Part shown: in pieces, positions 9,413 to 40,993 of the stretch
How the letters are laid out: each line of letters starts with the position of its first letter
How positions within the stretch are numbered: the first letter of the stretch is position 1
DNA from: Bryobacteraceae bacterium
Lineage (GTDB): Bacteria > Acidobacteriota > Terriglobia > Bryobacterales > Bryobacteraceae
Direction: 5' to 3'
Assembly (NCBI GenBank): GCA_035602155.1
Contig: DATNMW010000096.1
Location: forward strand, 41,319-105,318
DNA length: 64,000 nucleotides
Notes under the pieces: model-generated
The model's database searches: none
Seen by the model: only the letters and a program-made list of their open reading frames with translations
Told to the model about the DNA's origin: nothing
Position numbers and translations under genes: made by a program

Positions 9413-9884
9413 GCTTGGACTTGTCTTCCTTCATTTGCTCCTGAATGCGCTTCAAATCTTCGAGGTCGGTGCTACGTGCGGCCGCCTGTTTATTGGCGAT
9501 AAGATCGTCTAACGAAATGAAGTGCACCGGAACGCCGAACATGGCGCTTGCGATCCTGCTTCGCCATGCCAAAGCAAATTGAACTCCGCTGATTCGCGTC
9601 AGAATGTCTATTCGGACAGGGGCCACGCCCATCTGATACACGATGCCTTCTTGCGTGAAGGTCTCCGCTGTGATTCCATCGTCCTGCAAAGGCGCGCCGA
9701 ACTTCGCCAGCGCTCGAAATAATCTCGCCGCATTCGGCGGTGAGCTATCAACCCATACATCCAGGTCTTTCGTATAGCGCGGCTCGGTGTACTTCATCAC
9801 CGCGTAACCACCCACGATGAGATACTCAACCCGATAGTCGTCTAAGACTTGTAACAGTTCTTTGAAATGTGGGCTCTCTGTCAT
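9402..9884 (-). CDS. Nucleotidyltransferase-fold protein (MNT/AbiEii-like), putative toxin-antitoxin component
   Basis: 160-aa ORF. The motif YLIVGGYAVMKYTEPRYTKDLDVWV is typical of minimal nucleotidyltransferase folds. It is paired with a small upstream ORF. Confidence 0.5.
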   Translation of the reverse strand: MTESPHFKELLQVLDDYRVEYLIVGGYAVMKYTEPRYTKDLDVWVDSSPPNAARLFRALAKFGAPLQDDGITAETFTQEGIVYQMGVAPVRIDILTRISGVQFALAWRSRIASAMFGVPVHFISLDDLIANKQAAARSTDLEDLKRIQEQMKEDKSKPKT

Positions 9885-10041
9885 GTTTGATGCGCTCCGC
9901 TAGCTCCACCATTTCCCATGCTGCCCGGAAGATAGCTTCATCGCCCTGGGCCTGCCAGAACTCGACATCGAATTCACGACCGGGGAACCCGCCCTTGACG
10001 AGCCGGGTTTTCCATTTTGGTTTCTGGGCGATGTCCATCAT
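9826..10041 (-). CDS. Small hypothetical protein, possible partner of the nucleotidyltransferase-fold protein
   Basis: 71-aa ORF immediately upstream on the same strand. It overlaps the downstream gene by 59 nt. No recognisable motif. Confidence 0.35.
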   Translation of the reverse strand: MMDIAQKPKWKTRLVKGGFPGREFDVEFWQAQGDEAIFRAAWEMVELAERIKHDREPTFQRTVTSLRRLSG

Positions 10042-10209
10042 ACTAGTGTACCAACCCGGCCATCACGCGCAGCGGACGAGGCGATCGGGCCTGAATCCCG
10101 GGTCCACGCGGAGCAGGCCGGTGAAGCTTTTCACCAGCAGGCCCGCGCCGATGGTCAGCTGCACGGAAACCGCCACTTCGCCGACGATCAACAGGTCGCG
10201 CGTTCGCCG

Positions 10210-10310
10210 GAGCGGGAAGGCGCCAGCGGGGCGGCGAGCGCTTTTTGGGGGTCGGTCATAATTCCGGATTTCAAAGTATCTTCTCGGATGTATCGACCAG
10301 CAGGCGCTAT
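10210..10310 (+). repeat. ~100-bp diverged copy of the TonB-type receptor 3-prime region (copy of 9134..9232) embedded in the permease pseudogene
   Basis: Direct alignment by eye: gagcgggaaggcgcc..gcggcgagcgcttt..cataattccggatttca.agtatcttctcggatgt.tcgacc.gcaggcgctat. It encodes GHNSGFQSIFSDVSTSRRY versus GHNSGFHSIFSDVSTGRRY in the receptor. Confidence 0.8.
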
Positions 10311-10844
10311 GCCTTCGCGGCTCTGGCGCAACGGATCGATGCCAAACCGTATCCAGTAGGCCATCTGGCGGGTTGGCAGGTTCACGGCGCTGGGAATACC
10401 AAGCGGGAAACTGAAGCCGCGCGGCATCACTCCGACGACTACGTAGTCTTGCGTATGTTGCCCCGTCAGGCGAATCGCGCGGCCCACGATAGCCGGGTCG
10501 CCGGCGAAATGGCGCTGCCACAAATCGTAGTTCAGGACGATTACCTGGTCGTGGCCCGGTTGATCATCTGCGGGGAGGACGTAGCGGCCTAACAGCGGCG
10601 GCACGCCCAGGAGCGGCAATAGATTTGCTGAAACGCTCGCACCGTAAAGCGCATCCGGCTTGCCGGAGGCGGTCGGATTCAATAGCTCGCCGCGGTTCTG
10701 CGCGCCAGTCGGCCACATCGCGATAGGCTATCCAGTTCGCGGCTTCGCCTGTCTTGCGGTCGCGAAGCTGAATCTGCACCAACCGGCCGGGATTCGCAAA
10801 TGGCAACGGCGGCAGCAACAACCCGCGCACTACGCTGAAGATTG

Positions 10845-10877
10845 GGTAGTTGGCTACTTTGAATTTAGCCCACTACC
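10845..10877. mobile_element. 33-bp minimal inverted-repeat element or transposon footprint flanked by an 8-bp direct duplication
   Basis: GGTAGTTGGCTA-ctttgaatt-TAGCCCACTACC forms 12-bp arms with 1 mismatch. Identical gaagattg lies at 10837..10844 and 10878..10885. It interrupts the ...NTAIF/SVVRG... reading frame of the permease pseudogene. Confidence 0.6.
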
Positions 10878-11075
10878 GAAGATTGCCGTATTCGCGCCGA
10901 TGCCCAGCGCCAGGACGACGACGGCCACCGCCGTCAAGCCGGAGCTTTTCCGCAGCATCCGCAGACCCTGGCGCACGTCATTGAATATGAGGGAACGTCT
11001 GGTGCATCAGTTCAGTTTGACTGTGCAAGTGATAACACCAGATGGAAATCCGAGGCAGGCGTGTCAGCCGCAACG

Positions 11076-11378
11076 TCACGGCTGGAGTCGATGGTGTGTG
11101 AGGTCGCCCCATAGTCTGACTACCTGGCCCCACACACCGATTGCCTGCAGCACTCCGACGCAGGTTGCGATTACAACCACGATGTTTAGGATCGCCTTGA
11201 TGCTTCCCGCCATCGGGACATAAGTGTTTATAAGCCACAAACCGATTCCCACGACGACCAGCGCCAGTACGATATTCAGAATGATCCGTGCATTCCTCGG
11301 AGCCGTTACGTAACGGTTAACGATCCATCCAACGATTCCCACAGCGATCAGCGCCACGACGACGTAGACTAACGGCAT
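11076..11378 (-). CDS. Small integral membrane protein (three hydrophobic helices)
   Basis: The plausible start is MPLVYVVVALIAVGIVGWIVNRY within track ORF 11076..11537. 100 aa, strongly hydrophobic repeats (ILNIVLALVVVGIGLWLINTY, ILNIVVVIATCVGVLQAIG). Confidence 0.5.
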   Translation of the reverse strand: MPLVYVVVALIAVGIVGWIVNRYVTAPRNARIILNIVLALVVVGIGLWLINTYVPMAGSIKAILNIVVVIATCVGVLQAIGVWGQVVRLWGDLTHHRLQP

Positions 11379-11521
11379 TGTCTTGCACCTCGAAAAACAA
11401 AGAGCAATTGTGATGCCAACGCCTGCAATGGTACCAATTGCCGGGCGTTTTCGAGCCGATCGCTGCAGCCAATCCGCTGGCCGCGCGCGGGGTCCGCGAG
11501 GCGATCCCGGTATAATTAAGC

Positions 11522-14209
11522 ATGCCCACCAATTCATTCGGAGCCGCTTCCAACCTGCGCACTGGCAACGCCGATTACCGCATCCTTCGCCTGCGTACCC
11601 TGGAAGAACAAGGCGTCGGCAATGTCGGACACCTGCCGTTCGCCACCAAGATTCTGCTGGAGAACCTGCTCCGCCAGGAGGATGGCCGCCGCGTCACTGC
11701 CGCCGATATCGAGTATGTCGCGCACGGCGCGAGTGCGTCCGCGGCGGCCAAGGAAATCAGCTTCATGCCCGCGCGCGTACTTTTGCAGGATTTCACGGGC
11801 GTGCCCTGCGTGGTGGATCTCGCCGCTATGCGCGACGCGCTGGCCGCCATGGGCGCGGACCCCAAGCGCGCCAATCCGCTGCTGCCCGCCGACCTGGTGA
11901 TCGACCATTCCGTCCAGGTGGATAGCTACGGCGGCGCGGACTCATTCGGGATCAACGCGCTGCTCGAATTCCAGCGCAACCGCGAGCGCTACATTCTCTT
12001 GCGCTGGGGCCAGACCGCCTTTCAGAATTTCCGCGTGGTGCCGCCGGATACGGGCATTGTGCATCAGGTCAATCTCGAATACCTGGCCTCGGTCGTGTTT
12101 CGCCTCCACACCGTGCATGGTTGGGAAGCGTATCCCGATACGCTGGTCGGCACGGATTCCCACACCACCATGGTGAACGGCCTGGGTGTGCTCGGTTGGG
12201 GTGTAGGCGGCATCGAGGCGGAGGCTTGCATGCTCGGCCAGCCGGTCTCCATGCTCCTGCCGCCGGTGGTTGGCTTCAAGCTGCATGGCCGCATGCACGA
12301 AGGCGCGACCGCCACCGACCTGGTCCTGACCATCACCCAAATCTTGCGCAAGAAAGGCGTAGTGGGCAAGATCGTCGAGTTCTACGGCCAGGGCCTCAGC
12401 GCCCTGAGCCTGGCGGACCGCGCCACGGTGGGCAACATGGCGCCCGAATACGGCGCGACGGCCGGCTTCTTCCCGGTCGACGGGGAAACGCTCGCATACC
12501 TGCGCTTCACCAATCGCGATGCCGGCCTCATCGAACTTGTGGAAGCCTACACCAAGGAGCAGGGCCTGTTCCGCACCGACGGCACGCCCGATCCGGTGTA
12601 TGCCGAAACAGTGGATCTGGACCTGGCCTCGGTTACGCCATCGATGGCCGGTCCGAAGCGTCCGCAGGATCGCGTCGATCTGCCCGACGTGAAGAAAAAT
12701 TTCGAGACGGCCTTCGGCGGCGCACACAAGCCGGTAACTATCTCCATGAATGGAGGCGGCGGCAAGTCGACCATCGATAACGGCTCGGTGGTGATTGCGG
12801 CGATCACGAGTTGCACCAACACCTCGAACCCTTCCGTGATGCTCGCCGCCGGACTGCTTGCCAAGAAAGCCGTCGAGCGCGGGCTCAAGCCCAAGCCGTG
12901 GGTGAAGACCAGCCTCGCGCCCGGCTCCAAAGTAGTTTCGGATTATTACCGCGAGGCGGGTTTGACGCCTTACCTCGAAGCGCTCAACTTCCACCTGGTC
13001 GGTTACGGCTGCACCACCTGCATTGGCAACAGCGGGCCCCTTCCCGAGCCGGTGGCTGAAGCCGTGCAGCGCGAGAACCTGACGGTGGCTGCGGTGCTCA
13101 GCGGCAACCGCAATTTCGAGGGCCGCATCAATGCGCTGGTGAAGGCGAATTACCTGGCGTCGCCGCCGCTGGTGGTGGCGTATGCGCTGGCCGGACGCAT
13201 CGATATCGATCTGACTACTGAGCCGCTGGGCGAAGATTCCGCGGGCGCGCCGGTATATTTGCGCGACATCTGGCCCACCGACGAAGAGGTCCGCACCACT
13301 GTGCGCGCGTCCATCCGTCAGGACATGTTCCAACACGAATACGAGAAGGCCTTCGAGGGCGATACCAACTGGAAGACCATGAAGGTGCCCAGCGGCGACA
13401 TCTATGTATGGGACCCCAAGTCTACCTACATCAAACGTCCGCCTTATTTCGACCATATGGCGGATCCCGAGACCTCCGTTCAGGATTTACGCGCCATGCG
13501 CGCGCTGGCGCTGCTGGGCGATTCCATCACGACCGATCACATTTCCCCTGCGGGTTCCATCGGCAAGGATACGCCGGCGGGCCGATATCTGATCGAGCAG
13601 GGCGTGCAGCCGAATGATTTCAACTCCTACGGCGCGCGGCGCGGTAACCACGAGGTGATGGTGCGCGGCACGCTGGCCAACGTGCGGTTGCGCAACCAGC
13701 TCGCGCCGGGCACCGAAGGCGGCTGGACCCGGCATTTGCCGGATGGCGAGCAGATGTTCATCTACGACGCGTCCATCAAGTACCAGCGGGAAGGCGTGCC
13801 GCTGCTGATCGTAGCGGGCAAGGAGTACGGCTCCGGTTCGTCGCGCGATTGGGCGGCCAAAGGCGTGCTGTTGCTCGGCGTGAAGGCTGTAATCGCGGAG
13901 AGCTTCGAGCGCATCCATCGCACGAATCTGGTAGGCATGGGGGTGCTGCCGCTGCAATTCATGTATGCCGAGAATGCAGCCAGCCTGAAGCTGACCGGCC
14001 GTGAGCGGTTCAGCGTGGAAGGCGTGCAGGAAGCGTTGCGCGGTACGGAACGCCGCGCCCGCGTGCGCGCGGTGGACGACGACGGCGGCCAGAAGACCTT
14101 CGACGTGCTGGTGCGCGTGGATACGCCGCAGGAAGTTGAATATTACCGGTACGGCGGCATCCTGCCCTACGTGTTGCGCCAGATCGCCGAGGCTCCGGTG
14201 GCTGTCTAG
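11522..14209 (+). CDS. acnA: Aconitate hydratase A
   Basis: 895-aa ORF with aconitase signatures: [44 protein letters not shown], swivel domain [16 protein letters not shown]. Confidence 0.95.
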
Positions 14210-14436
14210 TGCCGGGCGTTTCCGGACGCGCTGCATTGCCCTGCTGCGCCGCCGCACGCGCGATTTACATCATGTAGGAAACGCCGGTAGTCGACCTCCT
14301 GTAATTGCCGTTTCGAAGACCGTACCACCGAACACGCACGCAGCGCGGCGGACCATGTTGCAAGCGCCCCCTAAAGCAGGTACGATTGAGTGTCCCGCCC
14401 TGTTCGAGTTTCGAGACCAAACATTAGTACATTTTT

Positions 14437-14814
14437 ATGCCGCAGCAACACAAGAAGGTTCTTGCCGTCGTAAGCGATCTTTTCTTTTCGGTCAAAATCA
14501 CCGACGCCGCCAAACGCGCCGGCATGGCGATGGAACTGGTCAAGGACCCGCACGAGCTCATGATCAAAGCGAAATCCAAACCGAGCGTGATCATCTTCGA
14601 TCTGAATTTCGAGGACGCCCAACCGCTGGAATTAATCGCCAAGCTGAAGGGCAGCGTGGAGTTCAAGGGCATCAGTCTGATCGGATATCTGTCGCACGTG
14701 CAGGGAGATCTGAAGCAGGCCGCGCAGGAGGCGGGTTGCGACATGGTGATGGCGAAGTCGGCGTTCTCGCAGAATTTGCAGCAGATTTTGAAGCGCCACT
14801 CCGGCGTCATCTGA
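14437..14814 (+). CDS. Single-domain receiver-like (CheY-fold) protein
   Basis: 125-aa ORF. KVLAVVSDLFF...VIIFDLNF...GYLSH...MAKSAF resembles a receiver fold. The acidic pocket is not clearly canonical. Confidence 0.5.
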   Translation: MPQQHKKVLAVVSDLFFSVKITDAAKRAGMAMELVKDPHELMIKAKSKPSVIIFDLNFEDAQPLELIAKLKGSVEFKGISLIGYLSHVQGDLKQAAQEAGCDMVMAKSAFSQNLQQILKRHSGVI

Positions 14815-14858
14815 ATCTTGTCGCATCTCGGTCAAAATCACAGGTAAGATGGAGGGTG

Positions 14859-15080
14859 ATGAAGGCTGAAGAGTACTGTGAGCGCCAAGTGGATGTGGAA
14901 CCCTGGCACGTCAGACTGACCTCGTATAAGCTCGGCGAGGTCTATCACTGCAAGGCCGACAACGTTTCCCCGGGCGCCGCTTTGGCGCGCACCACCGGCG
15001 CCACGCGCGAGGAAGCCGAACAGAAGGCCCTGGATCGCGCGCGGGAATTGCTCTCGCGCACGCGCCGCCACGGCGTCTAA
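14859..15080 (+). CDS. Small hypothetical protein (73 aa)
   Basis: ATG at 14859 is preceded by GGAGGG at 14851. This is the C-terminal part of the long run-through track ORF 14001..15080. No recognisable motif. Confidence 0.35.
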   Translation: MKAEEYCERQVDVEPWHVRLTSYKLGEVYHCKADNVSPGAALARTTGATREEAEQKALDRARELLSRTRRHGV

Positions 15081-15089
15081 TCCCTATTC

Positions 15090-16562
15090 ATGCCCAACCC
15101 ACCGGTTACCCGTTACGACCTGCCGGCGCTGGCCCGCCAGGAGATGATCGAGCACGGCTTCGCTCCCGACTTTTCGCCGGAAGTGGCGCGCCAGGTGGCG
15201 GCCCTGCGCGCGCATGCCTCGCCGCCGGATTCGAGCGGCACGATGCGCGATCTGCGCGGCCTGCTTTGGTCGTCGATCGACAACGACACGTCGCGCGATC
15301 TGGATCAGATCGAAGTCGCCGAGCGCCTGGCCAACGGCAACATTCGCATCCGCATCGGCATCGCGGACGTGGATACCGACGTACCCAAGGGATCGCCGAT
15401 CGATGCGCATGCCGCCGCGAATTGCACCACCGTATACACCGGCGTGAAAAACTTTCCCATGCTGCCGGACGATCTGTCCACGGATCTCACGTCGCTGAAC
15501 GAACATGCCGACCGGCTGTCCGTGGTGGTGGAACTGACAGTGGCGGCGGACGGCTCCGTGCAGGATGGCACGGCCTACCGCGCGATCGCGCGCAACGCCG
15601 CGCAGTTGGCCTACAGTTCCGTCGGCCCGTGGCTGGAAGGGAAGGCCGATCCCCCCGCCAAGTTGGCGGCGTCCGAGGATCTGCAGGCGCAGCTCCGTTT
15701 GCAGGACGAAGCCGCGCAGAAGCTGCGCGCGCAACGCCACCGCCTGGGTGCGCTCGACCTGGACCGCAGCGAAACGGAGCCGATCCTTTCCGACGGCCGC
15801 GTGACCGGGATCAAACCGCGCTTTCGCAATCGGGCTTCGGAGCTGATCGAGGATTTCATGGTGGCGGCGAACGGCGTGATCGCGCGGATGCTGCGGGACC
15901 ACCACATCGCATCCCTCCGCCGCGTGGTGAAGATTCCCGAGCGCTGGGACCGCATCGTGGAACTGGCGGCGCGTACGGGCGATATCCTGCCCGGCGATCC
16001 GGATTCGGGCGCGCTAAACATATACCTGACAAAGCGGCGGAACGAAGACCCCGTGCATTACTCCGATCTGTCACTGGCGGTGGTGAAGCTGATGGGGCCG
16101 GGCGAGTATGTGCTGGAGCGTCCCGGTGAGGCCGCGGTCGGGCACTTCGCGCTGGCCGTTCACGATTACACCCACTCGACGGCGCCCAACCGGCGCTTCG
16201 CCGATCTGGTGTCGCAGCGCCTGGTAAAAGCGGTGCTCGCCAAGCAACCTTCGCCCTACGGGGACGCCGAGTTGGATGGCGTGGCCCGCAATTGCACGCT
16301 GCGGGAAGACGCCGAGCGCAAGGTCGCACGCGCCATGAATAAACGCATCGCCGCGGTCGCGATGCACGGCCGTATCGGCGAAATCTTCCCGGCAGTGGTC
16401 ACCGGAGTTACGCCGAAGGGCACGTTCGTGCGGGCCTTGTCGCCGCCGGTGGAAGGACGGCTGATGCGCGGCGAGCATGGCTTGGACGTGGGCGACCAGA
16501 TTAGAGTGAAGCTGTTGAACACAGACCCGGCGCGCGGGTTCATCGATTTTGGCAGGTTATAA
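15090..16562 (+). CDS. RNB-domain 3-prime-to-5-prime exoribonuclease (RNase II/R family) with C-terminal S1-like domain
   Basis: 490-aa ORF. RNB-type motifs: IDNDTSRDLDQ, YT..KNFPMLP, HFALAVHDYTHSTAPNRRFADLVSQR. C-terminal S1-like VVTGVTPKGTFVRAL...GDQIRVKL. Confidence 0.85.
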   Translation: MPNPPVTRYDLPALARQEMIEHGFAPDFSPEVARQVAALRAHASPPDSSGTMRDLRGLLWSSIDNDTSRDLDQIEVAERLANGNIRIRIGIADVDTDVPKGSPIDAHAAANCTTVYTGVKNFPMLPDDLSTDLTSLNEHADRLSVVVELTVAADGSVQDGTAYRAIARNAAQLAYSSVGPWLEGKADPPAKLAASEDLQAQLRLQDEAAQKLRAQRHRLGALDLDRSETEPILSDGRVTGIKPRFRNRASELIEDFMVAANGVIARMLRDHHIASLRRVVKIPERWDRIVELAARTGDILPGDPDSGALNIYLTKRRNEDPVHYSDLSLAVVKLMGPGEYVLERPGEAAVGHFALAVHDYTHSTAPNRRFADLVSQRLVKAVLAKQPSPYGDAELDGVARNCTLREDAERKVARAMNKRIAAVAMHGRIGEIFPAVVTGVTPKGTFVRALSPPVEGRLMRGEHGLDVGDQIRVKLLNTDPARGFIDFGRL

Positions 16563-16743
16563 AGAGGGCAACTGAGCCGTGCCGACGCTCGGTCAACTGC
16601 CTTCTAAGCAGCGGGTCGCCGGTTCTACCCCAAACCTGCCTGTAGACGATTTGTAGCTGTAGATTTCCTCCAAGTTCAACAAGCCGCCTGACCTGGACCT
16701 GCAATCCCCCCATCAGCCGTCGGATCCACGACTCTGGATCCAC

Positions 16744-17180
16744 TTGACACCCTGCTGTCAGAGTTTTTTGGGCGACACAAAGAATACCCATGCAGCCGAA
16801 GCCGCGCTGAAGATTGACTACTCTCTTAAGAACGTCTTGATTCCACCGATTAAAAGTGTATACAAGCAGCAGTGTGATGATGGCCTGGTCCTGCAACAAA
16901 CGGTCGGCATCGATGTGAGCTCAGCGATGGCCGTTCGCAGCGTCATCCGCAACAATAATGATCTGGTCTGGGTGGGAAGAGCACCGAATATTGCCGCGAA
17001 GTTGAGCGCCAATTCGAGATACTTACACGATACATAACGAAGACAGTCTACGATCGGCTGAACGAATCAAGCAGATACGGGGGCGATCCACGACGTGTTA
17101 TGTCGGAAGCCTGCACCTGGAACACCGGTGCTGAATTCGGCGTTCGCGATCTATATCGTACTGGTTGGTGGTTGAAACCA
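16744..17180 (+). pseudogene. Relic of a class III nucleotidyl cyclase (cyclase homology domain), C-terminal half only, frameshifted
   Basis: SFLGDTKNTHAAEAALKI...TVGIDVSSAMAVR...DLVWVGRAPNIAAKLSA resembles the GD...A...G(I/V)..G......WvG..vN.AA+L cyclase pattern. It continues in another frame as YITKTVYDRLNESS...YRTGWW. No N-terminal half or start is present. Confidence 0.4.
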
Positions 17181-17387
17181 TAGTTCCTGCTGCGGTGTCA
17201 TCCTTGGAAACTAGACGGTCGATCGACATAGTTACATTTCGTACTGGCCTGCTGCTGTCTCGAAAATGAAAGGCGGGAGTGGCCGCTGGTCTGGCTTGAC
17301 AAGGCAAGCCCGCTTGTTATGATAGGCAGAGAAGTCTGGAATTCGGACTTCCGGACCATTAACCACACCAGTTCGTTATGAACACAA

Positions 17388-17718
17388 CCGCCAAAATCCA
17401 GCACAAGGGCCAGGTGACCATCCCCACCGGCATCATTCGCCAGGCCGCCTGTCCAAAGGCGACTTGGTGAAATTTGATTTCCAGCGCGGCAAGATCGTTA
17501 TCACGCCGAAGATCGTCATCGACCGCTCCACCTTCCCTACCGCCGATGACGACTACACACCCGAGCGGCGCAAGATCAATGATGCCCGCCTCAAAGAAGC
17601 CCGCAAAGGCCCCTACTACGGCCCCTTTGACACCGCCGCGGAGATGATCAGCCACATGAAAGGCCAGCTCAAGAAGAGAGCTGTTGCCAGGAAAACTAAA
17701 TCCGTCCGCGCTCGATGA
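17388..17718 (+). pseudogene. AbrB/MazE/SpoVT-family antitoxin, disrupted by a 1-nt frameshift
   Basis: MNTTAKIQHKGQVTIPTGIIRQA stops after ...CPKATW*. The +1 frame continues (G)LSKGDLVKFDFQRGKIVITPK... to 17718 (track ORF 17464..17718). Confidence 0.6.
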
Positions 17719-17940
17719 AGATCACTTACAGCAAGAAAGCACTGGAGGCCATCGACGACGCTCCACCGGCAGTCAAGAAAGCCTTTTTCAAGCAGAGCCG
17801 CCTTTCTAGCCAATGACCTTCACCACCGCTCCTTGCGGGCCAAGAAGTACGACGAATCTCAAGATCTCTGGCAGGCCCGCGTCAACAAGGATTGGCGCTT
17901 TTACTTTACCATCATCGATGACACCTACCAGATTGAATAG
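17715..17940 (+). pseudogene. RelE/ParE-superfamily toxin, disrupted by a frameshift
   Basis: The ATG at 17715 overlaps the antitoxin stop (ATGA). MKITYSKKALEAIDDAPPAVKKAFFKQ terminates early. Another frame continues AFLANDLHHRSLRAKKYDESQDLWQARVNKDWRFYFTIIDDTYQIE* to 17940. Confidence 0.55.
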
Positions 17941-18169
17941 GTCATTCCGCATCCTAAATAGCCACGGTCCGCCAACAACAACGTCGCCCAATTGGGGCGG
18001 CGTTGTTTGTTCTTGTCCGTGGAAACCCAGACGATTCACCCCACTGAGCAGCTCGACTAGTTTTGGTTTCGGGCGAGAGCGATCACGTCGCCATCCCAGG
18101 CATGAAACGCACCTTATCAAATCCAAACGTGAAACGCCATTCGGAAACCTCAGACGTGGCTTTCCGTGG

Positions 18170-18776
18170 TGGTGGAACTGGCCTCGCGTACGGGCGATAG
18201 CCTGCCCGGCGATCCGGATTCGGGCGCGCTCAACATATATCTGATGAAGCGGCGGACCGAAGACCCGTGCATTACTCCGATCTGTCGCTGGCGGTGGTGA
18301 AGCTGATGGGGCCGGGCGAGTATGTGCTGGAGCGCCCCGGGGAGGCCGCGGTCGGGCACTTCGTCCTGGCCGTTCACGATTACACCCACTCGACGGCGCC
18401 CAACCGGCGCTTCGCCGATCTGGTGTCGCAGCGCCTGGCAAAAAGCGGTGCTCGCCAAGCAACCTTCGCCCTCCGGGGACGCCGAGTTGGATGGCGTGGC
18501 CCGCAATTGCACGTTGCGGGAGGACGCCGAGCGCAAGGTCGCGAGGGCTATGAACAAGCGGATCGCGGCCGTCGCCATGCACAGCCGCATTGGCGAGGTC
18601 TTTCCGGAGGTGGTCACCGGGGTTACGCCGAAAGGCACGTTCGTGCGAGCCTTGTCGCCGCCCGTAGAAGGACGGCTGATGCGCGGCGAACATGGGTTGG
18701 ACGTGGGCGACCAGATCCGCGTAAAGCTGTTGAATACCGACCCGCGCGCGGCTTCACCGACTTCGGCCGGTCGTAG
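18170..18776 (+). pseudogene. Diverged duplicate of the 3-prime ~600 bp of the RNB exoribonuclease gene
   Basis: Collinear with 15957..16562, roughly nine of ten positions identical by eye. It has at least three 1-nt indels and splits into track ORFs 18267..18776 and 18322..18834. The homology ends at the former stop codon. Confidence 0.9.
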
Positions 18777-18830
18777 GCCCCGATTCCTGCCATGCCCGTC
18801 TCAAAATCACTCAGGAGAGAAAATTCCGTC

Positions 18831-19380
18831 ATGACTTATTACGGAGCAAAAGAGCTCGCGCGATCGTTCCGCGCGGTCCGCGATAACACGATCGAAATTG
18901 CGAGGATATCCCGGAAGACAAGTACGGTTTCTCCGGCGGAGGGATGCCGCTCGGTGGCGGAGGCGCTGGTGCACATTGCCGTAATGACGCGCGTGCCGGA
19001 GCAGATCCATGCGGTCGAGCGCCTCAGCACGCTGGTTGGCTTCGATTTCTTCGGGGTCAGGGGCAAGCTGCAAGTGGAAGTGAAGGCGCCGCGCACAAAG
19101 GCGCAGATACTGGAACTGTTGCGCGCCGAGGGCGAGAAGTACGCCAGGGTCCTGGAAGGCGCCACCGAGGCCTTTTTGGGTGAGCAGCTCGAGTAGCCCG
19201 GAAGGGATGCAGCCGCGGGTGAAGTCGCGGCTCGAAATGCTGGTCGCGCCCAAGGAACACGAGATGCATCACCGCGGGCAGTTGATGGTGGTTGAGCGGA
19301 TGCTCGGCATCACGCCGCACCTCACGCGGCAGATGGAAGCGCGCATCGCGGCGATGCAGGCGGTACAGGCGGCCCGGTAG
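18831..19380 (+). pseudogene. DinB-family (four-helix bundle) protein, apparently frameshifted
   Basis: MTYYGAKELARSFRAVRDNTIEIA...LVHIA... runs to 19196. The C-terminal HHRGQLMVVERMLGITP motif lies in a different frame (track ORF 19180..19380). Confidence 0.55.
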
Positions 19381-19868
19381 ACATCGGAAGACTGGCGGCG
19401 GTTGATACAACAATCCGCCGCCAGTCGCATTATCAACAGCATGCCGGAGCCATTGGCTTCGATCATGGGGCCGATCCACGATCTCCCGTTTGCGATTCAA
19501 TGTCGTCATGCGACCTGCGACGCAGAGCCAGAGTCTTGGCGTTGTCGAGATTGAGAAACCGTCCCGGGCGGTACCGCAGTTCGATCCGCGGGCGGCGGAT
19601 GCCGCATTTGTCTCGCGTGAGCGCTGGGTATCCCCTCGATCCGGAGGACAACGTACTTCGCGGCGAAGTTTAGTTCTGTCGCTAACCTCTTGCGCAAAAG
19701 GGAAGCGCCGCAACCTCCGCACATTAGCGCAGAACTTGCACCCCGCGGGCAGCGTTGTTCCACAACAACCATTTGCGCGGCCGAGGCCGGTAGTTCAACA
19801 GGCGTAGCCTGATCGAGATGCACTGATAAGGAGGCTCCTGGCGCCCAAATAAGCCAACGAGCGGGCAT

Positions 19869-19940
19869 TCACACTCTGCGAATGAGCCACACAACCAACA
19901 CAATCACAATAACAGTTCCGAGCAATCCTAAGCCGAGCAT
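19869..19940 (-). CDS. Candidate 23-aa hydrophobic peptide MLGLGLLGTVIVIVLVVWLIRRV
   Basis: ATG preceded by AAAGGAGAA at about 6-nt spacing. Single TM helix with a basic C-terminus. Lies in an otherwise non-coding ~0.9-kb gap. Confidence 0.3.
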   Translation of the reverse strand: MLGLGLLGTVIVIVLVVWLIRRV

Positions 19941-20304
19941 TTCATTTCTCCTTTGAGTTCGCTCTAACGAGCCCGCCTGGCGCGCATCGTGCGTCAGTCT
20001 CTATTGCACGGCTCGCACCAACGTCCTTTTCCGTTGAGCCGATTCGCCCACCGGCGAGTTGCGGACTCGGTTTGGAAGGAGCGAGGCCCTCTGGTGGTAA
20101 CGACGTGCGGTCAAGTGACCGCAGGCGGTCAGAAACCCCAGCGTGTACATTTAGGTGTGGTCGCCAACCATTTCGTCCGGAGCCGGGCATGCTACTAGCG
20201 CCGCGATTGCCGGAGCATCGTGGTACGGCGATACACGCTGAAGGAGCTCGTCAAGCCGGGACGAAACGGCATCACAGATGCAGGTGGGGCGCATAGGAGA
20301 TTTT

Positions 20305-20742
20305 ATGGAACAACAAGGTAAGATTACCAAGACAGATCCTGACAAGCGCTATCGCCGTGTGCTGGCCGCGAGCACGCTGACAGGCGACTCCGTGCAGAAC
20401 TCATCCGGAGAGACCCTCGGAAAAGTAGACGAGATCATGATCGACATCGGCTCCGGCAAGGTGGCCTATGCCGTCCTGTCCTTCGGCGGATTCCTCGGTA
20501 TGGGCAACAAGCTGTTCGCGCTGCCTTGGTCCACTCTCAGAGTTGACGAGGACCAGAAACACTTCATTCTCGATGTCGACAAGGCGAAGCTGGAGCATGC
20601 TCCGGGATTCGATAAAGAGCATTGGCCGGACATGTTGGATACCACCTGGCGCAACGGAATCTTCAGCTACTATGGCGCGAAACCCTATTGGGAGGGTCAT
20701 GAGGAGCCGGCAGCCCTCCGGCGTGCCGGTGGCGGGTCGTAA
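20305..20742 (+). CDS. PRC-barrel domain protein
   Basis: Likely start MEQQGK. The motif LTGDSVQNSSGETLGKVDEIMIDIGSGKVAYAVLSFGGFLGMGNKLFALPW is a typical PRC-barrel. Confidence 0.8.
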   Translation: MEQQGKITKTDPDKRYRRVLAASTLTGDSVQNSSGETLGKVDEIMIDIGSGKVAYAVLSFGGFLGMGNKLFALPWSTLRVDEDQKHFILDVDKAKLEHAPGFDKEHWPDMLDTTWRNGIFSYYGAKPYWEGHEEPAALRRAGGGS

Positions 20743-20765
20743 CGGGTCATAGTGGAGGTGGCCCC

Positions 20766-20794
20766 CCGCGACCGGTCGCCAAACCCGGTCGCGG
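20766..20794 (+). terminator. Perfect 10-bp stem / 9-nt loop hairpin downstream of the PRC-barrel gene
   Basis: ccgcgaccgg-tcgccaaac-ccggtcgcgg lies 24 nt after the stop codon. There is no clear U-tract, so terminator function is tentative. Confidence 0.35.
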
Positions 20795-21045
20795 CAAGTC
20801 CGCCGAGTTGCTTTCCGGGTGGCATCACGGGTATCGGGTTACACCGGCGGAGGCAGACCTGCATCAAAGGCCTGCCTTCGCTTCCTCACGTAACCAGCAT
20901 CGCCAAAGCGGCCGCGCAGGTCCATTCCCGCACCTTCGCTCCCAGCGAGCTCGTCCGCCCGCCGGCGCTGGACAGGGAACAGCCAAAGTAGCGCCCGAGA
21001 ACCAGGCTTATCGCTATTCAAATAGCGATTTTGCGGGCTGTCCGG

Positions 21046-21999
21046 CTACTGCGCCGCATCCTTCTTCTTCTCTTCTTCCTTCTTATCGTCTTTCTTTTCG
21101 TCCTTCTTATCGTCGACCGGATGCCGCGGCTTGCGCGCGACGGGCTTCGCACTCGCCATCTCGACGTATGTCCGCAGAATGCGATCCTTCTGCTCCGGAT
21201 CGAAAATCAACTCGCGGCGATTGCCGCTGCCCGAGAGCTTGAAGTAGCCGTCATTGGGATGCACGGCGTAAAGCATCGCGGCCATCGCCCATGACGGCGC
21301 ATCATACGGCATCGGCCGGTAGGCGCGGTAAGCATCCGCCACTGGATGCCCGCCGGCATACCCGAAATCCTTCTCGATGCTGTCCCCCGGAAACAGCAGC
21401 GCCTCGCCAATCTCGCGTCCCGCCGTCACAATCGGCGTTGGCCACGCCGCAAATACTTTTTGGGCCGCTGCGGTGTCCGCTTGCATGCCGGATTCCGCCA
21501 CGCAAAGCAGCCGCACCTTGCGGGCAACCCAATCCTTCGCGCCATACATGTCCAGCAACTTTGCCAGATCGGTGGCAGGACCGCTGAGCACCACGGCCGC
21601 ATTCTGATCGTACTGCGCCATCAGCACATTGCGGATCAGCGTGGCGCCGTCGGCGGTATCGTCGATGCTCTTGATTGAATTCGGGTTCGACGCGTTGCCA
21701 GCCACCTTGCCGAACATCGCCGATGCGGCAGGCGCCTTCCCATCCGCCAACCCGATCGGCATGAAGTGCATGAACATGGCCGCCGGACCGGTGGTGGCGC
21801 TGGCATAGAAGCGGCCCACTGCATCGCAGAATTGCGCCGCCTGCAGATCCGCGCTGCTCACGCAAATTGCCGCGATGCGCGCCTGGTCCTTGCCGTCGAA
21901 CCCATGCAGCATCGCCAGGGCCAGCACGTCGTCGATGCGGCCCATGGCGGAATCGAATACGATGCCTACGGGCGGTTTGGCCGCTATCGGAAACTGCAT
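21046..21999 (-). CDS. Nucleoside-hydrolase-like protein with lysine/glutamate-rich C-terminal tail
   Basis: 317-aa ORF. The N-terminal IVFDSAMGRIDDVLALAML resembles the DxDxxxDD pocket of IU-nucleoside hydrolases. The tail is KKDEKKDDKKEEEKKKD. Confidence 0.45.
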   Translation of the reverse strand: MQFPIAAKPPVGIVFDSAMGRIDDVLALAMLHGFDGKDQARIAAICVSSADLQAAQFCDAVGRFYASATTGPAAMFMHFMPIGLADGKAPAASAMFGKVAGNASNPNSIKSIDDTADGATLIRNVLMAQYDQNAAVVLSGPATDLAKLLDMYGAKDWVARKVRLLCVAESGMQADTAAAQKVFAAWPTPIVTAGREIGEALLFPGDSIEKDFGYAGGHPVADAYRAYRPMPYDAPSWAMAAMLYAVHPNDGYFKLSGSGNRRELIFDPEQKDRILRTYVEMASAKPVARKPRHPVDDKKDEKKDDKKEEEKKKDAAQ

Positions 22000-22000
22000 G

Positions 22001-23341
22001 TCAGGTCAGATCCAGCGCGTCCAGGCGTCCGGTCGAGTCGCCGAAATGCTCGACGTGCACGCCCATGCGGTCCATCATCGCCAGGTAGAGATTGCACATG
22101 GGGGTTTCTTTCCGGTAGACGATTCGCCGCCCGGATTTGAAGTGGCTGCCGCCGCGCCCGGCGATCAGGGTTGGCAGATCCTCGTGCAGGTGGCGGTTGC
22201 CGTCCGAAAGCCCCGCGCCATAGACGATCATGCAATTGTCCAGCAGCGAGCCATCGCCCTCCCGGATCGTCCGCATTTTCGCGATCCAGGCGGCGAACTG
22301 CCGCACGTGATAGGAGTTGATCTGGGTCACCTTCTCGATCAGGTCCGGCTGGTTGCGGTGATGCGTCAACGGGTGATGGCCGTCGGGAATGTCGATCTCG
22401 CGGTAGGGCCGCGAGGTGCCTTCATGGGTGACCAGGAATGTGATCACGCGCGTCAGGTCCGACTGGAAGGCCACGGTCATCATGTCGGTCATCAGCTTGA
22501 AGTGCTCGGCGAAATCCGCGGGAACGCCGTAGGGCTTCTCCATGTGCGGATCGATTTGCGCGTTGGCCTTCTCGGTTTTCTCGATCTGGCGCTCAATCTC
22601 GCGGATCGACGAAAGATATTCGTCGAGTTTGCGGCGGTCGGTGGGACCCAGTCTCGTCTCCAGCTTGCGCGTGTCGTCGCTGACGAAGTCCAGAATGCTG
22701 CGGCGATACAGATTTTCGCGCGCGCGGGCAGCGGGCGTCAGCGCCATGCCATTGCCGAACAGCCGTTCGAAAAGCGCGCGCGGGTCGAGCACCGGCGGCA
22801 GTGGCTGGGTCTCGCTCTTCCACGCCAGATTGTTGGTGTAAGCGCAGGAATAACCCGAGTCGCAATCGCCGGCTTGCCGCGCATCCTCCATGCCCAGTTC
22901 GAGCGAAGGGAAGCGCGTGGCTTTGCCCACTTGATTCGCCACGATCTGGTCGAACGACACGCCGGCTTTGATATCGATGACGGTCTTGCGCGGCTGCACG
23001 CCGGTCAGGTATGAGGCGCAGCAGCGGCCATGATCGCCCGCACCGTCGAGCAAAGCGCGCCCGGTGTTGTGAGTCAGGTTGCCGAACAGCGTGATGTCCT
23101 CGCGGTACGGCTCGAGCGGCTTCAGGATGCGCGGCAATTCGCCCAGCTTGCCTTCATAATCCGGATTCCAACCGTTCATCATGATGCCGTTGGGCACGTA
23201 GACGAAGGCCATTCGGACGGGAGGCTTTGAAGTTGTGGCGGCGGCCAGCGCCGGCGCCATCGCATCCAGGAACGGCAGCGCGACGGCCGTGCCCATCCCG
23301 CGCAGGAACGATCTTCTGGGCAGAGCCTTCTTGGTAATCAT
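22001..23341 (-). CDS. DUF1552 family protein with Tat-type signal
   Basis: 446-aa ORF. The N-terminus has RRSFLRGMGTAVALPFL. The conserved architecture and its position downstream of a DUF1592-type gene are typical of this pair. Confidence 0.8.
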   Translation of the reverse strand: MITKKALPRRSFLRGMGTAVALPFLDAMAPALAAATTSKPPVRMAFVYVPNGIMMNGWNPDYEGKLGELPRILKPLEPYREDITLFGNLTHNTGRALLDGAGDHGRCCASYLTGVQPRKTVIDIKAGVSFDQIVANQVGKATRFPSLELGMEDARQAGDCDSGYSCAYTNNLAWKSETQPLPPVLDPRALFERLFGNGMALTPAARARENLYRRSILDFVSDDTRKLETRLGPTDRRKLDEYLSSIREIERQIEKTEKANAQIDPHMEKPYGVPADFAEHFKLMTDMMTVAFQSDLTRVITFLVTHEGTSRPYREIDIPDGHHPLTHHRNQPDLIEKVTQINSYHVRQFAAWIAKMRTIREGDGSLLDNCMIVYGAGLSDGNRHLHEDLPTLIAGRGGSHFKSGRRIVYRKETPMCNLYLAMMDRMGVHVEHFGDSTGRLDALDLT

Positions 23342-25650
23342 CGTTGAGCTACCTCTCTGGGCTTGGTATCCTTGCTCGCATCGCCCCGGCCCATTTGGAA
23401 CGGAGCGCTATGTACAATTTCAAAAATCAGCGATTGAAAATGATAGCCGGAAGCCGCCATATCGCGGTTGATGCCATCCACCGTGCGCCGGTCGTACGGC
23501 TGCAACCCGCGACCCAGCGCATAGGTCAGCATCTTTTCCGTCAGGCACCGGGAAAACTGCGGCAACCCCGCCATCAGCAGTGCGCGCATCTCATCCGGCG
23601 TCTTAAACGACTTGCCGCTGGGCAGCGTGCCGCTCGCATCCACCGGGAACTTGCCGTCCATGGTGCGCCATTTTCCAATAGCGTTGTAGTTCTCCAGGCC
23701 GAACCCCAGCGGGTCCATCTTGTTGTGGCATGAGGAGCACATGGGATCGGCGCGATGCTTCTCCATCTGCTGCCGCAAGGACATCAGCGTGCCCACCGCG
23801 CTTTCATCCAGCGCCGGCACGTCCGGAGGAGGCGGCGGAATCTCGGATCCCAGGATATTGTTCAGCACATACTTGCCGCGCAGCACCACGGATGTGCGCG
23901 TGGGGTAGCTCGAAACGGTCAACACGCTCGCCTGGCTCAGCAGCCCGCCGCGCTGCCCTGTGGTCAGCTCCACGCGACGGAAATCCGGCCCCGTCACGCC
24001 GGGGATGCCATAAAATTTGGCCAGCCGAGCGTTCAGGAAAGTATACTTGGCGTCGATGAAATCGGAAAGCGGACGATCCTCGCGCAGCACATATTCGAAG
24101 AACATGCGCGTCTCGCTCTTCATGGCGTCGCGCAATTCCGGCCCCCATTCGGGGAATTTGTCCGGATCCGGCTTCACCACATCGAGATTGCGGATCTCCA
24201 GCCACTGGCCGGCGAAATTGCTCGCCAGCGCGGCCGAGCGCTTGTCCGCCATCATGCGCTTCACCTGCCCGTCCAGCACCGCCGAATCGTGCAGTTTGCC
24301 GGATTCGGCGAGGCCCAGCAGCTCGTCGTCCGGCATCGAACTCCATAGGAAATAGCTCAGCCGCGATGCCATCTCCACGTCCGCAATCCGGTGTACGTCT
24401 TGCGCGTCGGTGGGGTTGGGATCGTGTTCGATGCGGAACAGGAACTGCGGCGTCACCAGCATGGCTTCGATCGCCAGTTGGATGCCTTGCTCCGTGGTCT
24501 CGCCGCGCGAACGGGCCAGAGCCACGAACTTCAGCAGCGAGGCAACTTCGGCGCGGGTCGCGGGCCGCCGGTAAGCGCGGTGCGCCAGCGCGGTGACGAT
24601 CTTCTCCACGCACGCCTGCCCGGACTTGGGATCGCAAATCAGAATCTTCTTGCGGCTCGCGCGCTCGACGTCCGTAGGGTATGGCCCCACGAACACCATC
24701 GAATTCAGATACTTGTTCTTCTTGTTGCTGTAAGCGTCCTTGTCGGACAGGGTCTTCACGAAGTCGTCGTCGATGAAGCCCGCGCGGAAGACATGGTCGC
24801 CGGAGGGCAGGTACATGCGCACCTCGGCTTCCGAATACGGCTCGAAATATACGAGCTTCGACGGCTTGGTCTCGACCGGCATCGTCTTCATCAACGTGCC
24901 GTCCATCCAGAACCCAAGCGTCACCGGCTTGGAGTCCGCGTTGCGTTCGCCGGGCATCCCGAAACGGATCACGTAATCGCCGTCCCATTCCACGCGATGC
25001 GAAGCTTCGATGGTGCTTCGGTCCAGGCGCTGGATAGTCTTGTCTTTCGAGTGGTATTGTACTTCGAGCGGCTTCTTCGGCAGCGGATCGGCCCCCATGG
25101 CGCGCGAGGCTATGACTTCGGCGGCGTCCACGTAATTCTCCATCAGCACCGGAGAAATGGTCAGTACGTCCGCGATGTTATCGAAACCGTAGCCGGAGTC
25201 GTCCGTGGGGAAGTTCTTATCGGCGCGGAAATCCACGGCCAGCAGATCGCGAACGGTGTTCGAATATTCGCTGCGGTTCAGGCGGCGCGCGGTGACGTGC
25301 CCAGGGTCCGGTTTGATATTGCGGTCGGCCTTCTCGAATTCACCCTCCACGTAGTGGATCAGCGCCTGCATCTGCGCCTCGGGCGGGCGCGGAATGCCTT
25401 TAGGCGGCATCTCGCCGCCGCGCAACTTGTCGAGAATCGTCTCCCAACCGTCGCGGTAATTCGCGATCGAATCCTGCGACATTAACAGCTTGACGTTCAG
25501 GCCCCCGGACGACAGCTTGTCGTTGTGGCATAGGGCGCAGGTCTTGGAAAGCACCGGCTTCACGGCCGAATCGAAATCGGCTGGCGGGGCATCCGCGGCG
25601 CGCAATGAACCGGCGAGGGCTAACGCAGTCGCAATGATCCGTAGTCTCAG
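23338..25650 (-). CDS. DUF1592/DUF1588/DUF1585-type protein with N-terminal cytochrome-c-like CxxCH (PSD-type) domain
   Basis: The track ORF is 23338..25605 (TTG start). It carries CALCHN and CSSCHNKMDPLGF motifs. The frame stays open upstream and encodes LRLRIIATALALAGSLRA, a signal peptide. A possible CTG start at 25650 follows GGAGG. Confidence 0.8.
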   Translation of the reverse strand: MRLRIIATALALAGSLRAADAPPADFDSAVKPVLSKTCALCHNDKLSSGGLNVKLLMSQDSIANYRDGWETILDKLRGGEMPPKGIPRPPEAQMQALIHYVEGEFEKADRNIKPDPGHVTARRLNRSEYSNTVRDLLAVDFRADKNFPTDDSGYGFDNIADVLTISPVLMENYVDAAEVIASRAMGADPLPKKPLEVQYHSKDKTIQRLDRSTIEASHRVEWDGDYVIRFGMPGERNADSKPVTLGFWMDGTLMKTMPVETKPSKLVYFEPYSEAEVRMYLPSGDHVFRAGFIDDDFVKTLSDKDAYSNKKNKYLNSMVFVGPYPTDVERASRKKILICDPKSGQACVEKIVTALAHRAYRRPATRAEVASLLKFVALARSRGETTEQGIQLAIEAMLVTPQFLFRIEHDPNPTDAQDVHRIADVEMASRLSYFLWSSMPDDELLGLAESGKLHDSAVLDGQVKRMMADKRSAALASNFAGQWLEIRNLDVVKPDPDKFPEWGPELRDAMKSETRMFFEYVLREDRPLSDFIDAKYTFLNARLAKFYGIPGVTGPDFRRVELTTGQRGGLLSQASVLTVSSYPTRTSVVLRGKYVLNNILGSEIPPPPPDVPALDESAVGTLMSLRQQMEKHRADPMCSSCHNKMDPLGFGLENYNAIGKWRTMDGKFPVDASGTLPSGKSFKTPDEMRALLMAGLPQFSRCLTEKMLTYALGRGLQPYDRRTVDGINRDMAASGYHFQSLIFEIVHSAPFQMGRGDASKDTKPREVAQR

Positions 25651-25702
25651 TGGCAGTGCCTCCCCGGTTCCGAATGGCTTATTGTTTTATAATACCTCTG
25701 AA

Positions 25703-40965: not shown

Positions 40966-40993
40966 GGAGCGGGATGCCCGCCGGTGCTATCCT

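Follow-up and report, generated by a model that had tools for sequence, protein, structure and literature searches.

A circular DNA molecule that shares a segment with a chromosome can enter it by a single crossover. Such Campbell integration, known from transducing phages, F-primes and suicide plasmids, leaves a direct repeat of two reciprocally hybrid copies and is reversible. Integrative elements that target tRNA genes reportedly do so at the anticodon loop or the T-loop (an account said to be that of Williams in 2002), and tRNA-directed integrases classically cross over where this loop ends on its 3' side. For restriction–modification genes, a further arrangement is known as "insertion with long target duplication", a name that reportedly goes back to Nobusato et al. 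in 2000. Here, the insert is flanked by near-identical repeats (e.g. 417/423) that were read as a duplicated target (Furuta et al. 2010, PMC2853133), and the use of the tRNA segment from the anticodon loop to the 3' end by integrative elements is described in the same paper (PMC2853133). Loss of the element e14 from Escherichia coli recombines both gene ends into a chimeric icd gene (PMC13626634). Displacement of gene ends has been described for the C-termini of rhs genes (Jackson et al. 2009, PMC2935791) and, as a sequential process, for effectors of the type VI secretion system (T6SS) (Kirchberger et al. 2017, PMC5361080). Here we analyse a locus that resembles each of these systems in part. 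It lies within contig C96 of a metagenome-assembled genome (MAG) of a Bryobacteraceae bacterium, in a stretch of 64,000 nt (the window), where the 3' end of an RNB-domain exoribonuclease gene (RNB) is present twice: once in the working gene (copy A) and once as a 5'-truncated, frameshifted copy (copy B) on the far side of an insert of relic DNA. In our estimate, the probability is roughly 55% that the locus arose by homology-driven, Campbell-type integration, in which an integrative-element remnant entered by way of a homeologous RNB tail of its own, and that it has eroded since.

The MAG comprises 438 contigs (7.2 Mb, 88.6% complete, 4% contamination); gene positions are numbered with position 15090 of the window as 1. 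A and B were aligned with MAFFT, and a repeat search independently gave families D1–D3. The two copies are collinear and differ by 56 substitutions and three single-base indels (≈ 91% identity). An earlier note, made from the letters of the window alone, had judged them by eye to be collinear and about 90% identical with three 1-nt indels; the pairwise alignment bore this out, and the similarity is not weaker than it had appeared. All three indels of B fall within short homopolymer runs. Relative to A, the CCCC run ending at 16049 is one C shorter, the A-run after 16225 is one A longer and the G at 16529 is absent. The first sequence shared by A and B is GTGGAACTGG and the last is the stop codon (TAA in A, TAG in B), exactly where the homology had been said to end; the flanks beyond are unrelated. 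At the left boundaries of A and B, no shared sequence was found to the left of GTGGAACTGG, and there is no att core there. The limits given earlier for A were exact, and the start given for B was 2 nt too early. At the joint between the insert and B (18169/18170–18172), a repeated GTGG is found and otherwise no homology, and no k-mer is common to the joint and the RNB upstream sequence. In the whole 7.2-Mb assembly, the RNB tail occurs only twice, as A and as B, which excludes chance.

For comparison we used 20 species-representative genomes of the genus and, additionally, a large protein collection with linked contigs; of 591 metagenome loci that matched the RNB locus, the best 80 were inspected. 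An RNB orthologue is present in 20/20 of the genus genomes. None of them carries the insert, and in each the homology to RNB goes no further than the stop codon. Only the small open reading frame (ORF) next to RNB and RNB itself are common to these genomes and the window; their DinB and 317-aa genes are located elsewhere, and no empty site was found among them. Neither the genus representatives (best 86%) nor the best 80 of the 591 metagenome loci (L055, 87%) contained a relative closer than A and B are to each other.

An empty site was found in the closest lineage (91%-identical RNB, P0002), which is represented by contigs from at least five samples (L259–L264). These have a single RNB 3' end, followed by 54 nt and an intact 181-aa DinB gene, in the order Fe-ADH, ABM, small ORF, RNB, 54 nt, DinB, 315-aa gene, HXXSHH gene and PSD-domain gene. 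On contig L259, 5755–7468 aligns to 14843–16557 of the window, 6868–8060 corresponds to 18172–19362 in one high-scoring segment pair (1196 nt, 90.3%) that spans B, spacer and DinB, and 8107–13473 aligns to 21017–26253. The last codons of B, its TAG stop and the spacer are those of L259; A ends in TTATAA and then runs into unrelated DNA. Since B, spacer and DinB match L259 and the end of A and the DNA downstream of it do not, the right side of B is resident. The RNB–DinB arrangement is ancestral, B and the DNA downstream of it are resident, and what came in is the insert with the distal part of A. The earlier proposal that the locus is an insertion scar, rather than an ancient tandem duplication without any empty-site allele, was thus upheld by the comparison with related genomes, in that the closest lineage has the arrangement RNB, 54 nt, DinB.

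The insert (16563–18169) has a G+C content of 0.50–0.58, compared to 0.63–0.70 in the flanks. As had been noted, it holds only relics, namely a cyclase fragment and an AbrB/RelE-type pair with one frameshift in each gene, and no integrase. No match to an integrase family was obtained in the window; for PF00589, the nearest weak match lies outside it (C96:26586–26897). A tRNA-type core begins 34 nt after the stop codon of A. It is an internal fragment of tRNA-Arg(TCT) that is not a functional tRNA, and ARAGORN predicted no tRNA anywhere in the window. Neither repeat nor self-similarity searches of the region gave a second copy of this core, and 17940–18169 is without tRNA-like sequence by eye. 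No feature was assigned to the final 160 nt of the insert. Close to the core lies an arm-like motif whose recurring form is CTGTAGAYGATTTTGTAGCTGT followed by TTCAACAAG (16640–16660 in the window). It is also found 3' of tRNA-Arg in G020 (C11, about 184760–184810) and 3' of another tRNA 3' half in G010 (C15, about 2025284–2025329), and it occurs twice on the MAG's own contig C335 (22125–22147 and 24238–24260), 1.5 and 3.6 kb from the real tRNA-Arg gene. This motif is probably the arm of a family of integrative elements that sit at tRNA genes.

Further information on the site came from a sister strain, contig L258 (JGI 3300078418, Ga0643812_0021312), which is 99.34% identical to 12195–16609 of the window over 4.4 kb without a gap. 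Within it lie the aconitase gene, a 125-aa ORF and the small ORF, then RNB, whose end is of the A type, the 34-nt interval and 13 nt at the start of the core. Identity breaks off between 16609 and 16610, where the anticodon loop ends on its 3' side (immediately after ...TTCTAAGC), and from there onward L258 (4416–6713) consists of unrelated DNA with a Replic_Relax (replication–relaxation) gene. This element is absent from the MAG analysed here. Since different mobile DNA lies to the right of the same point of the core in L258 and in the window, the site has been used more than once.

The cargo of the insert is of the defence and addiction type. The relic of a Pycsar-type nucleotide cyclase retains the C-terminal 57% of the protein (profile about 100–232 of 232): 16744–17037 matches profile positions 100–180 of 232 (E 6.8e-27) and, in another frame, 17034–17177 matches 187–229 (E 1.7e-3). 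A full-length cyclase is absent, and the insert contains no ORF for a Pycsar effector. Read through its frameshift, the antitoxin pseudogene gave MazE and AbrB matches (E 1.5e-4 and 3.5e-4) that are below threshold (MazE 22.1 bits, cutoff 24.7), and the toxin pseudogene gave a weak RelE_StbE match (E 0.04). The start of the toxin gene overlaps the end of the antitoxin gene (ATGA), and both this overlap and the gene order are as in the intact homologues of G015 and G032. The intact G015 pair consists of a 113-aa antitoxin (L034, 1354–1695) and a toxin (L034, 1692–1940); intact toxin homologues measure 81–82 aa (also L036, 1894–2139), and the antitoxin has a homologue in G032 too. A second copy of the same toxin–antitoxin family, likewise frameshifted, lies beside a HicB-like small ORF elsewhere in the MAG (C372:2551–2879, L004). 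Taken together, the tRNA-Arg core, the shared arm motif, the breakpoint in L258, the low G+C content and the defence/addiction cargo support the view that the insert is foreign relic DNA descending from an integrative element of the kind that sits at tRNA genes.

The earlier note had called B a decayed copy of the same ~600 bp. This description did not hold at the codon level. Forty of the 56 substitutions between A and B are at third codon positions, the copies differ at about 14 amino-acid sites, and the ratio of nonsynonymous to synonymous divergence (dN/dS) is 0.11, to be compared with 0.08–0.10 for functional orthologues of different species. Divergence is distributed over three segments: 92.4% identity and dS 0.15 at 868–987, 97.1% and dS 0.055 at 988–1197, and 85.1%, dS 0.77 and dN/dS 0.05 at 1198–1473. 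Over these last 276 nt, A is 84–88% identical to its relatives (dS 0.54–0.74), and B is no closer to A than they are. The observed dN of the last segment is 0.036; if B had been identical to A at first and had then drifted to a dS of 0.77, a dN of ≈ 0.4 would be predicted. Most of the difference therefore arose in working genes of different lineages. Decay of a tandem duplicate in place is excluded by the dN/dS result, and a duplication linked to an inversion was rejected as well, as the repeats are direct. The real decay of B is confined to the three indels and a few replacements, most differences being synonymous and older than the event. More generally, segment-wise dS and dN/dS of a gene and a nearby fragment of it can tell a displaced homeologous end from a duplicate decayed in place.

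A duplicated target can still be reconciled with these values if homologous recombination with diverged strains later replaced part of one copy, for instance the right part of B together with DinB, for which B could have served as the homologous flank. Small defence or addiction cargos without mobility genes and with target duplications of 30–420 bp are documented (PMC2853133), and over positions 868–1197 together A and B are close (dS 0.09, dN/dS 0.36), as expected of divergence in place. We nevertheless consider this course of events unlikely. Within 868–987, A is derived at seven sites (two amino-acid changes) at which B has the state of L259, and at six of the seven the state of B is common to all outgroups; the left part of B is thus not a recent copy of A. 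An end of the repeat at the stop codon is natural for two alleles and would be a coincidence for a random duplication, and the DNA 3' of A is the att-bearing end of an element. Finally, two or more events would be required where one suffices.

Campbell-type integration would account for the locus as follows. The resident locus would have had the order small ORF, RNB, 54 nt, DinB. The incoming DNA would have come from a related Bryobacteraceae lineage, as the remnant of an integrative element of the tRNA-gene type with a tRNA-Arg att core and arm, a Pycsar cyclase and a toxin–antitoxin cassette. It would also have carried the last 606 nt of the RNB gene of its former host, for which imprecise excision from a site 34 nt 3' of RNB may be the simplest source. 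No site-specific step would have been involved; instead, the carried RNB tail would have recombined with resident RNB by homologous recombination, most likely in one Campbell crossover of a circle within the longest identical run of A and B (73 nt, 1063–1135), their most similar stretch. One product, A, would then consist of the resident 5' part of the gene, the resident left part of the repeat and the incoming right part; the other, 5'-truncated B, would combine the incoming left part with the resident right part and be joined to the resident spacer and DinB. As an outcome, the working gene would end in foreign codons and the old end would be displaced 2.2 kb downstream. Later, most of the element would have disappeared, its integrase included, and the cyclase, both toxin–antitoxin genes, B and DinB would have become frameshifted.

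Such a history predicts that the affinities of A and B switch within the repeat. Placing both ends phylogenetically among the genus and metagenome relatives, as the earlier note had advised, gave A and B as sisters over the whole repeat and did not tell which is native; when the repeat was split into segments, a mosaic was revealed. Left of the central run, B is nearer to the outgroups (7:4 sites), and right of it A is nearer (26:9, majority outgroup; Fisher p 0.03). The direction of the switch was identical with all seven outgroups, and five of eight tests gave p ≤ about 0.05. Together with dN/dS and the hybrid ORFs described below, this switch (p ≈ 0.03) makes the Campbell-type circle with a homeologous fragment, one of the two readings put forward earlier, the best fit to the data.

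The same polarity evidence would be obtained if linear DNA had entered by one-sided homologous recombination combined with an illegitimate join, a process termed homology-facilitated illegitimate recombination. The left end would have recombined within the small ORF or RNB, A being incoming from the crossover onward, and the right end would have been joined to RNB position 868, leaving B wholly resident. This would dispense with a circular intermediate, the GTGG microhomology at the joint of insert and B is typical of illegitimate joins, and one-sided homology with an illegitimate join has been proposed for displaced effector and Rhs 3' ends (PMC5361080). It appears doubtful to us, as B should then be uniformly resident and show no switch in affinity, whereas a switch was seen. 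Moreover, the duplication requires a join upstream of the homologous anchor, which is not the usual outcome, and the central 210 nt with dS 0.055 beside a segment with dS 0.77 would need an extra assumption.

Hybrids of A and B without the insert were found in a soil gene catalogue (SRC) as two ORFs, P0066 and P0130, which consist of the 5' part of RNB and B-type tails. P0066 is A-type to about nt 1062 and then has the frameshifted reading of B (extra A, missing G), the switch point lying inside the 73-nt identical run. P0130 is A-type up to somewhere within 1169–1278 and then B-type; it lacks the same G, and its reading extends into the DinB spacer. Each of them has private substitutions. P0066 has the structure that is predicted for the resident (pre-integration) allele or an excision allele, and the two ORFs could be genuine excision products or precursors. 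They illustrate the broken genes that result when A and B recombine: since B is frameshifted, any crossover between them 5' of gene position 1440 scrambles the S1 domain or removes it, and a pop-out that leaves an intact product is possible only within the last 33 nt. The decay of the displaced copy B would therefore slow the loss of the insert by homologous recombination. In a bolder variant, the resident RNB tail would already have been frameshifted, as in P0066, and the incoming tail would have repaired the gene.

Several observations weigh against Campbell-type integration as reconstructed here. No circle, integrase or second att copy is present. The 26 nt that precede the tRNA core are not tRNA-like (8/26 by manual count), from which it follows that the site in the former host differed from an ordinary tRNA gene; a donor tRNA gene downstream of RNB was rejected on this ground. 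A and B diverge to very different degrees over the three segments (7.6%, 2.9% and 14.9%), and a 95-nt patch at 1210–1304 is specific to B. Given this unevenness, the model must assume either that donor and resident were mosaic beforehand or that gene conversion occurred later. The switch in affinity is modestly significant, the outgroups are interrelated and three of the eight tests were not significant. As for the hybrid ORFs, the catalogue gives no contig for either, and their crossover points differ, which means that at most one of them is ancestral; both could be jumps of the assembler across identical runs of 40–73 nt. Lastly, synteny is broken 5' of the small ORF, and a larger or different rearrangement is possible.

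We also compared the MAG with itself, which returned 72 local direct repeats (≥ 150 nt, ≥ 84% identity, spaced 0.3–20 kb). At least 19 further loci have an intact gene 3' end, a lower-GC insert and a 5'-truncated copy 0.3–7 kb downstream (85–97% identity), and in at least 10 of these the repeat ends ≤ 13 nt from the stop codon of the intact gene. Loci of this type lie on contigs C99, C228, C237, C269, C173, C235, C244, C305, C12, C166 and others, and one is in the window (36912–37111 / 40849–41047). Long pairs have dN/dS 0.03–0.09 and few or no indels. At gyrB (C99:12986–20892, L235), a second copy of the final 1096 nt lies 4.4 kb downstream (92.5%, no indels, dN/dS 0.04), beyond a 4.4-kb insert with a dCTP-deaminase-like gene and an uncharacterised 479-aa ORF. 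This gyrB fragment is equidistant (dS 0.30–0.34) from the MAG's own gyrB and the gyrB of three other species, and in G005 part of the insert adjoins gyrB in the opposite orientation. At an aromatic amino-acid lyase gene, the insert contains a gene for a C5 DNA methyltransferase; a RoxA-like cytochrome c gene is a further example of the layout. No mobile element common to the inserts of 34 similar loci was found, the inserts being mutually unrelated, and across loci there was no gradient of divergence toward the stop codon. In a 400-kb sample of the contiguous relative G008, two local repeats were found, neither of the displaced-end type, the sample being too small to judge.

The presence of at least 19 loci that share one architecture, although neither their genes nor their inserts are related, speaks for a recombination route of a general kind. 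Tentatively, we regard it as possible, rather than probable, that the RNB scar is one case of a recurrent, element-independent acquisition of defence and addiction islets in this acidobacterial lineage, in which DNA of a sister species (an islet with a neighbouring piece of a core gene) integrates by homology and displaces the resident gene end. Extending this route to the displaced-end loci of the MAG in general is a working hypothesis. As a corollary, the decayed displaced copy would lock the islet in, because a pop-out would break the core gene.

The number and variety of these loci also bear on the other reading of the earlier note, an element that integrated into the RNB 3' end while supplying a replacement end. 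In the site-specific form of this reading, the integrase would have been lost later. The layout is indeed that of icd, e14 and icdC, where excision yields chimeric genes (PMC13626634), and hybrid ORFs of A and B exist. A dedicated RNB-targeting element of the e14 or phage 21 type is very unlikely all the same. The left boundary has no att core or short identical core, and the sole att-like sequence lies outside the gene, 34 nt past the stop codon, and is of the tRNA-Arg type. There is no integrase in the window, the 606-nt replacement end far exceeds the short icdC C-terminal fragment at e14 (PMC13626634), and no element was found at RNB in the 20 genus genomes or in the best 80 of the 591 metagenome loci. 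In addition, the at least 19 analogous loci are at unrelated genes and have unrelated inserts. Nothing in the data points to a site-specific entry into RNB.

A MAG of many contigs with measurable contamination may contain two co-occurring strains threaded into a single contig. The similar identity (91–95%) of many repeat pairs of the MAG is in line with such an assembly artefact, as is the one repeat pair (C281) that ends exactly at a contig end. For the RNB locus, we think this highly improbable. The joint between insert and B has no shared sequence by which a de Bruijn graph could be bridged; B with its three frameshifts and the frameshifted DinB beside it is not the working allele of a second strain; and the flanks are collinear with a real empty-site locus. 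Furthermore, the structure is identical in a second assembly with different contig ends: a MEGAHIT contig of 38.6 kb (ENA ERZ27256045) equals 10090–21562 of the window with a single mismatch, at 12828, and reproduces both junctions and every indel. The flanking genes for aconitase (2.7 kb) and RNB (1.5 kb) are intact, which means that the indels are concentrated in DNA that selection no longer maintains and are not a sign of an assembly prone to errors throughout. Sequencing errors as the source of the indels were provisionally rejected on the intactness of these genes and the agreement of the second assembly.

The features of the locus are listed in Table 1.

Table 1. Features of the RNB locus, by position in the window
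Feature	Position	Strand	Evidence
Small conserved ORF, 73–80 aa, no family match	14838..15080	+	tblastn 73–86% to 15 relatives; 73-aa gene in L257–L264
RNB-domain 3'-5' exoribonuclease gene, intact, 490 aa, RNB domain and C-terminal S1 domain	15090..16562	+	Pfam RNB E 1.5e-75, RNase_II_C_S1 E 2e-16
Copy A, final 606 nt (202 codons) of the working RNB gene	15957..16562	+	Alignment with B
Internal tRNA-Arg(TCT) fragment, anticodon stem to start of T-loop, att-core type	16597..16627	+	30/31 identical to the genome's own tRNA-Arg(TCT), about positions 28–56
Arm-like motif CTGTAGACGATTTGTAGCTGT ... TTCAACAAG	16630..16683	+	Matches in tRNA-adjacent DNA of other genomes
Pycsar-type nucleotide cyclase (PycC) relic, 5'-truncated, frameshift near 17035	16744..17177	+	PADLOC PDLC00766
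Sigma-70-like promoter, TTGACA-16-TATGAT with upstream TG, 5' of antitoxin	17296..17323	+	11/12 hexamer matches; consensus match only
AbrB/MazE-type antitoxin pseudogene, frameshift near 17446–17449	17378..17718	+	Homologues in G015, G032
RelE/ParE-like toxin pseudogene, frameshift near 17795–17803, stop 7 codons early	17715..17940	+	Homologues L034, L036
Intrinsic-terminator-like hairpin, 13-bp stem and T-rich tail, closing the toxin–antitoxin cassette	17977..18007	+	13-bp stem followed by T-rich tail
Copy B, 5'-truncated RNB 3' end, displaced resident gene end, three 1-nt indels	18172..18776	+	Alignment with A
Spacer orthologous to the RNB–DinB spacer of the empty-site lineage	18777..18830	+	About 53/57 nt identical to L259
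DinB-family pseudogene, three indels (-1, -2, +1), ancestral RNB neighbour	18831..19380	+	Compared with intact 188–191-aa genes of G010, G012

The small ORF lies 9 nt 5' of RNB in every relative examined and may be a conserved partner of the exoribonuclease. Homology to L259 begins at 14843, and synteny with all relatives is lost 16 nt 5' of the small ORF. The region before it (14210–14843) adjoins a different neighbourhood here, aconitase and a low-GC 125-aa receiver-like ORF, in place of the Fe-ADH and ABM genes of the relatives. In the MAG, the Fe-ADH homologue is truncated where contig C431 ends, and an ABM gene is lacking. On the other side, the stretch 19363–21016 (≈ 1.65 kb, with a PRC-barrel gene at 20278–20742 and some 0.9 kb without ORFs) stands where the empty-site lineage has a gap of 47 nt between DinB and the 315-aa gene; it is a second insertion in the same slot. 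An Rfam scan gave a single weak, sub-threshold small-RNA match, inside the RNB gene. Elsewhere in the window, there are two adjacent direct-repeat pairs of 248 and 300 nt (88–90%), 3.3–3.7 kb apart (58300–59268 and 62275–62814).

The locus shows how small islets can enter a chromosome without a recombinase of their own, by way of a captured piece of a core gene and the homologous recombination of the host. Visible together are an empty site, the displaced end, candidate excision or ancestral hybrids and a sister strain in which another element follows the core. There is also a caution in it: a housekeeping gene that looks native can be foreign in part, as RNB is in its S1-domain tail, and close to gyrB, a standard phylogenetic marker, the genome has a comparable fragment. 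Should the genome-wide pattern be true, frequent recombination between species would drive genome expansion and islet turnover in large-genome soil Acidobacteriota.

Compared with the known systems, the layout comes close to that of e14 and phage 21 in icd of E. coli, where the insert supplies the 3' end and the resident end is a 5'-truncated pseudogene (icdC) at the far side; P0066 and P0130 parallel the chimeric icd genes. However, e14 has its own integrase, a short core in icd and a short replacement end. The RNB locus has none of these and instead has a 606-nt homeologous mosaic. The long target duplications share with it a small addiction or defence cargo without a mobility gene and direct repeats of > 30 bp, well above the length of transposon target duplications, that align to one copy at the empty site and often overlap the 3' end of a gene. 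In contrast to those repeats, the two RNB copies stem from alleles that had diverged beforehand (dS up to 0.77), and each is a mosaic reciprocal to the other; their cargo is a toxin–antitoxin pair with a Pycsar relic and an att relic rather than restriction–modification genes.

In the rhs and T6SS systems, as at RNB, a 3' end and its cargo come in via the conserved 5' part of a gene, and the old end persists downstream as an orphan. Those genes encode polymorphic toxins with selected alternative C-termini and immunity genes, whereas RNB is a core gene with orthologous ends that give no sign of a functional difference, and its displaced end is dead. With the elements that target tRNA genes, the locus has in common a partial tRNA from the anticodon stem, a breakpoint in the anticodon loop and an arm found beside tRNA 3' halves; it differs in that integrase and second att are lacking and in that the tRNA block ends in the T-loop and lies 34 nt after a protein gene. 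The textbook cases of Campbell integration come from the laboratory or from lysogeny and involve near-identical homology, whereas the event at RNB appears, from the sequences compared, to have been natural, to be fixed and to have joined different lineages at 3–15% divergence. The RNB locus is thus not a new kind of system; it illustrates clearly, and in a natural setting, a route of gene acquisition that is already known.

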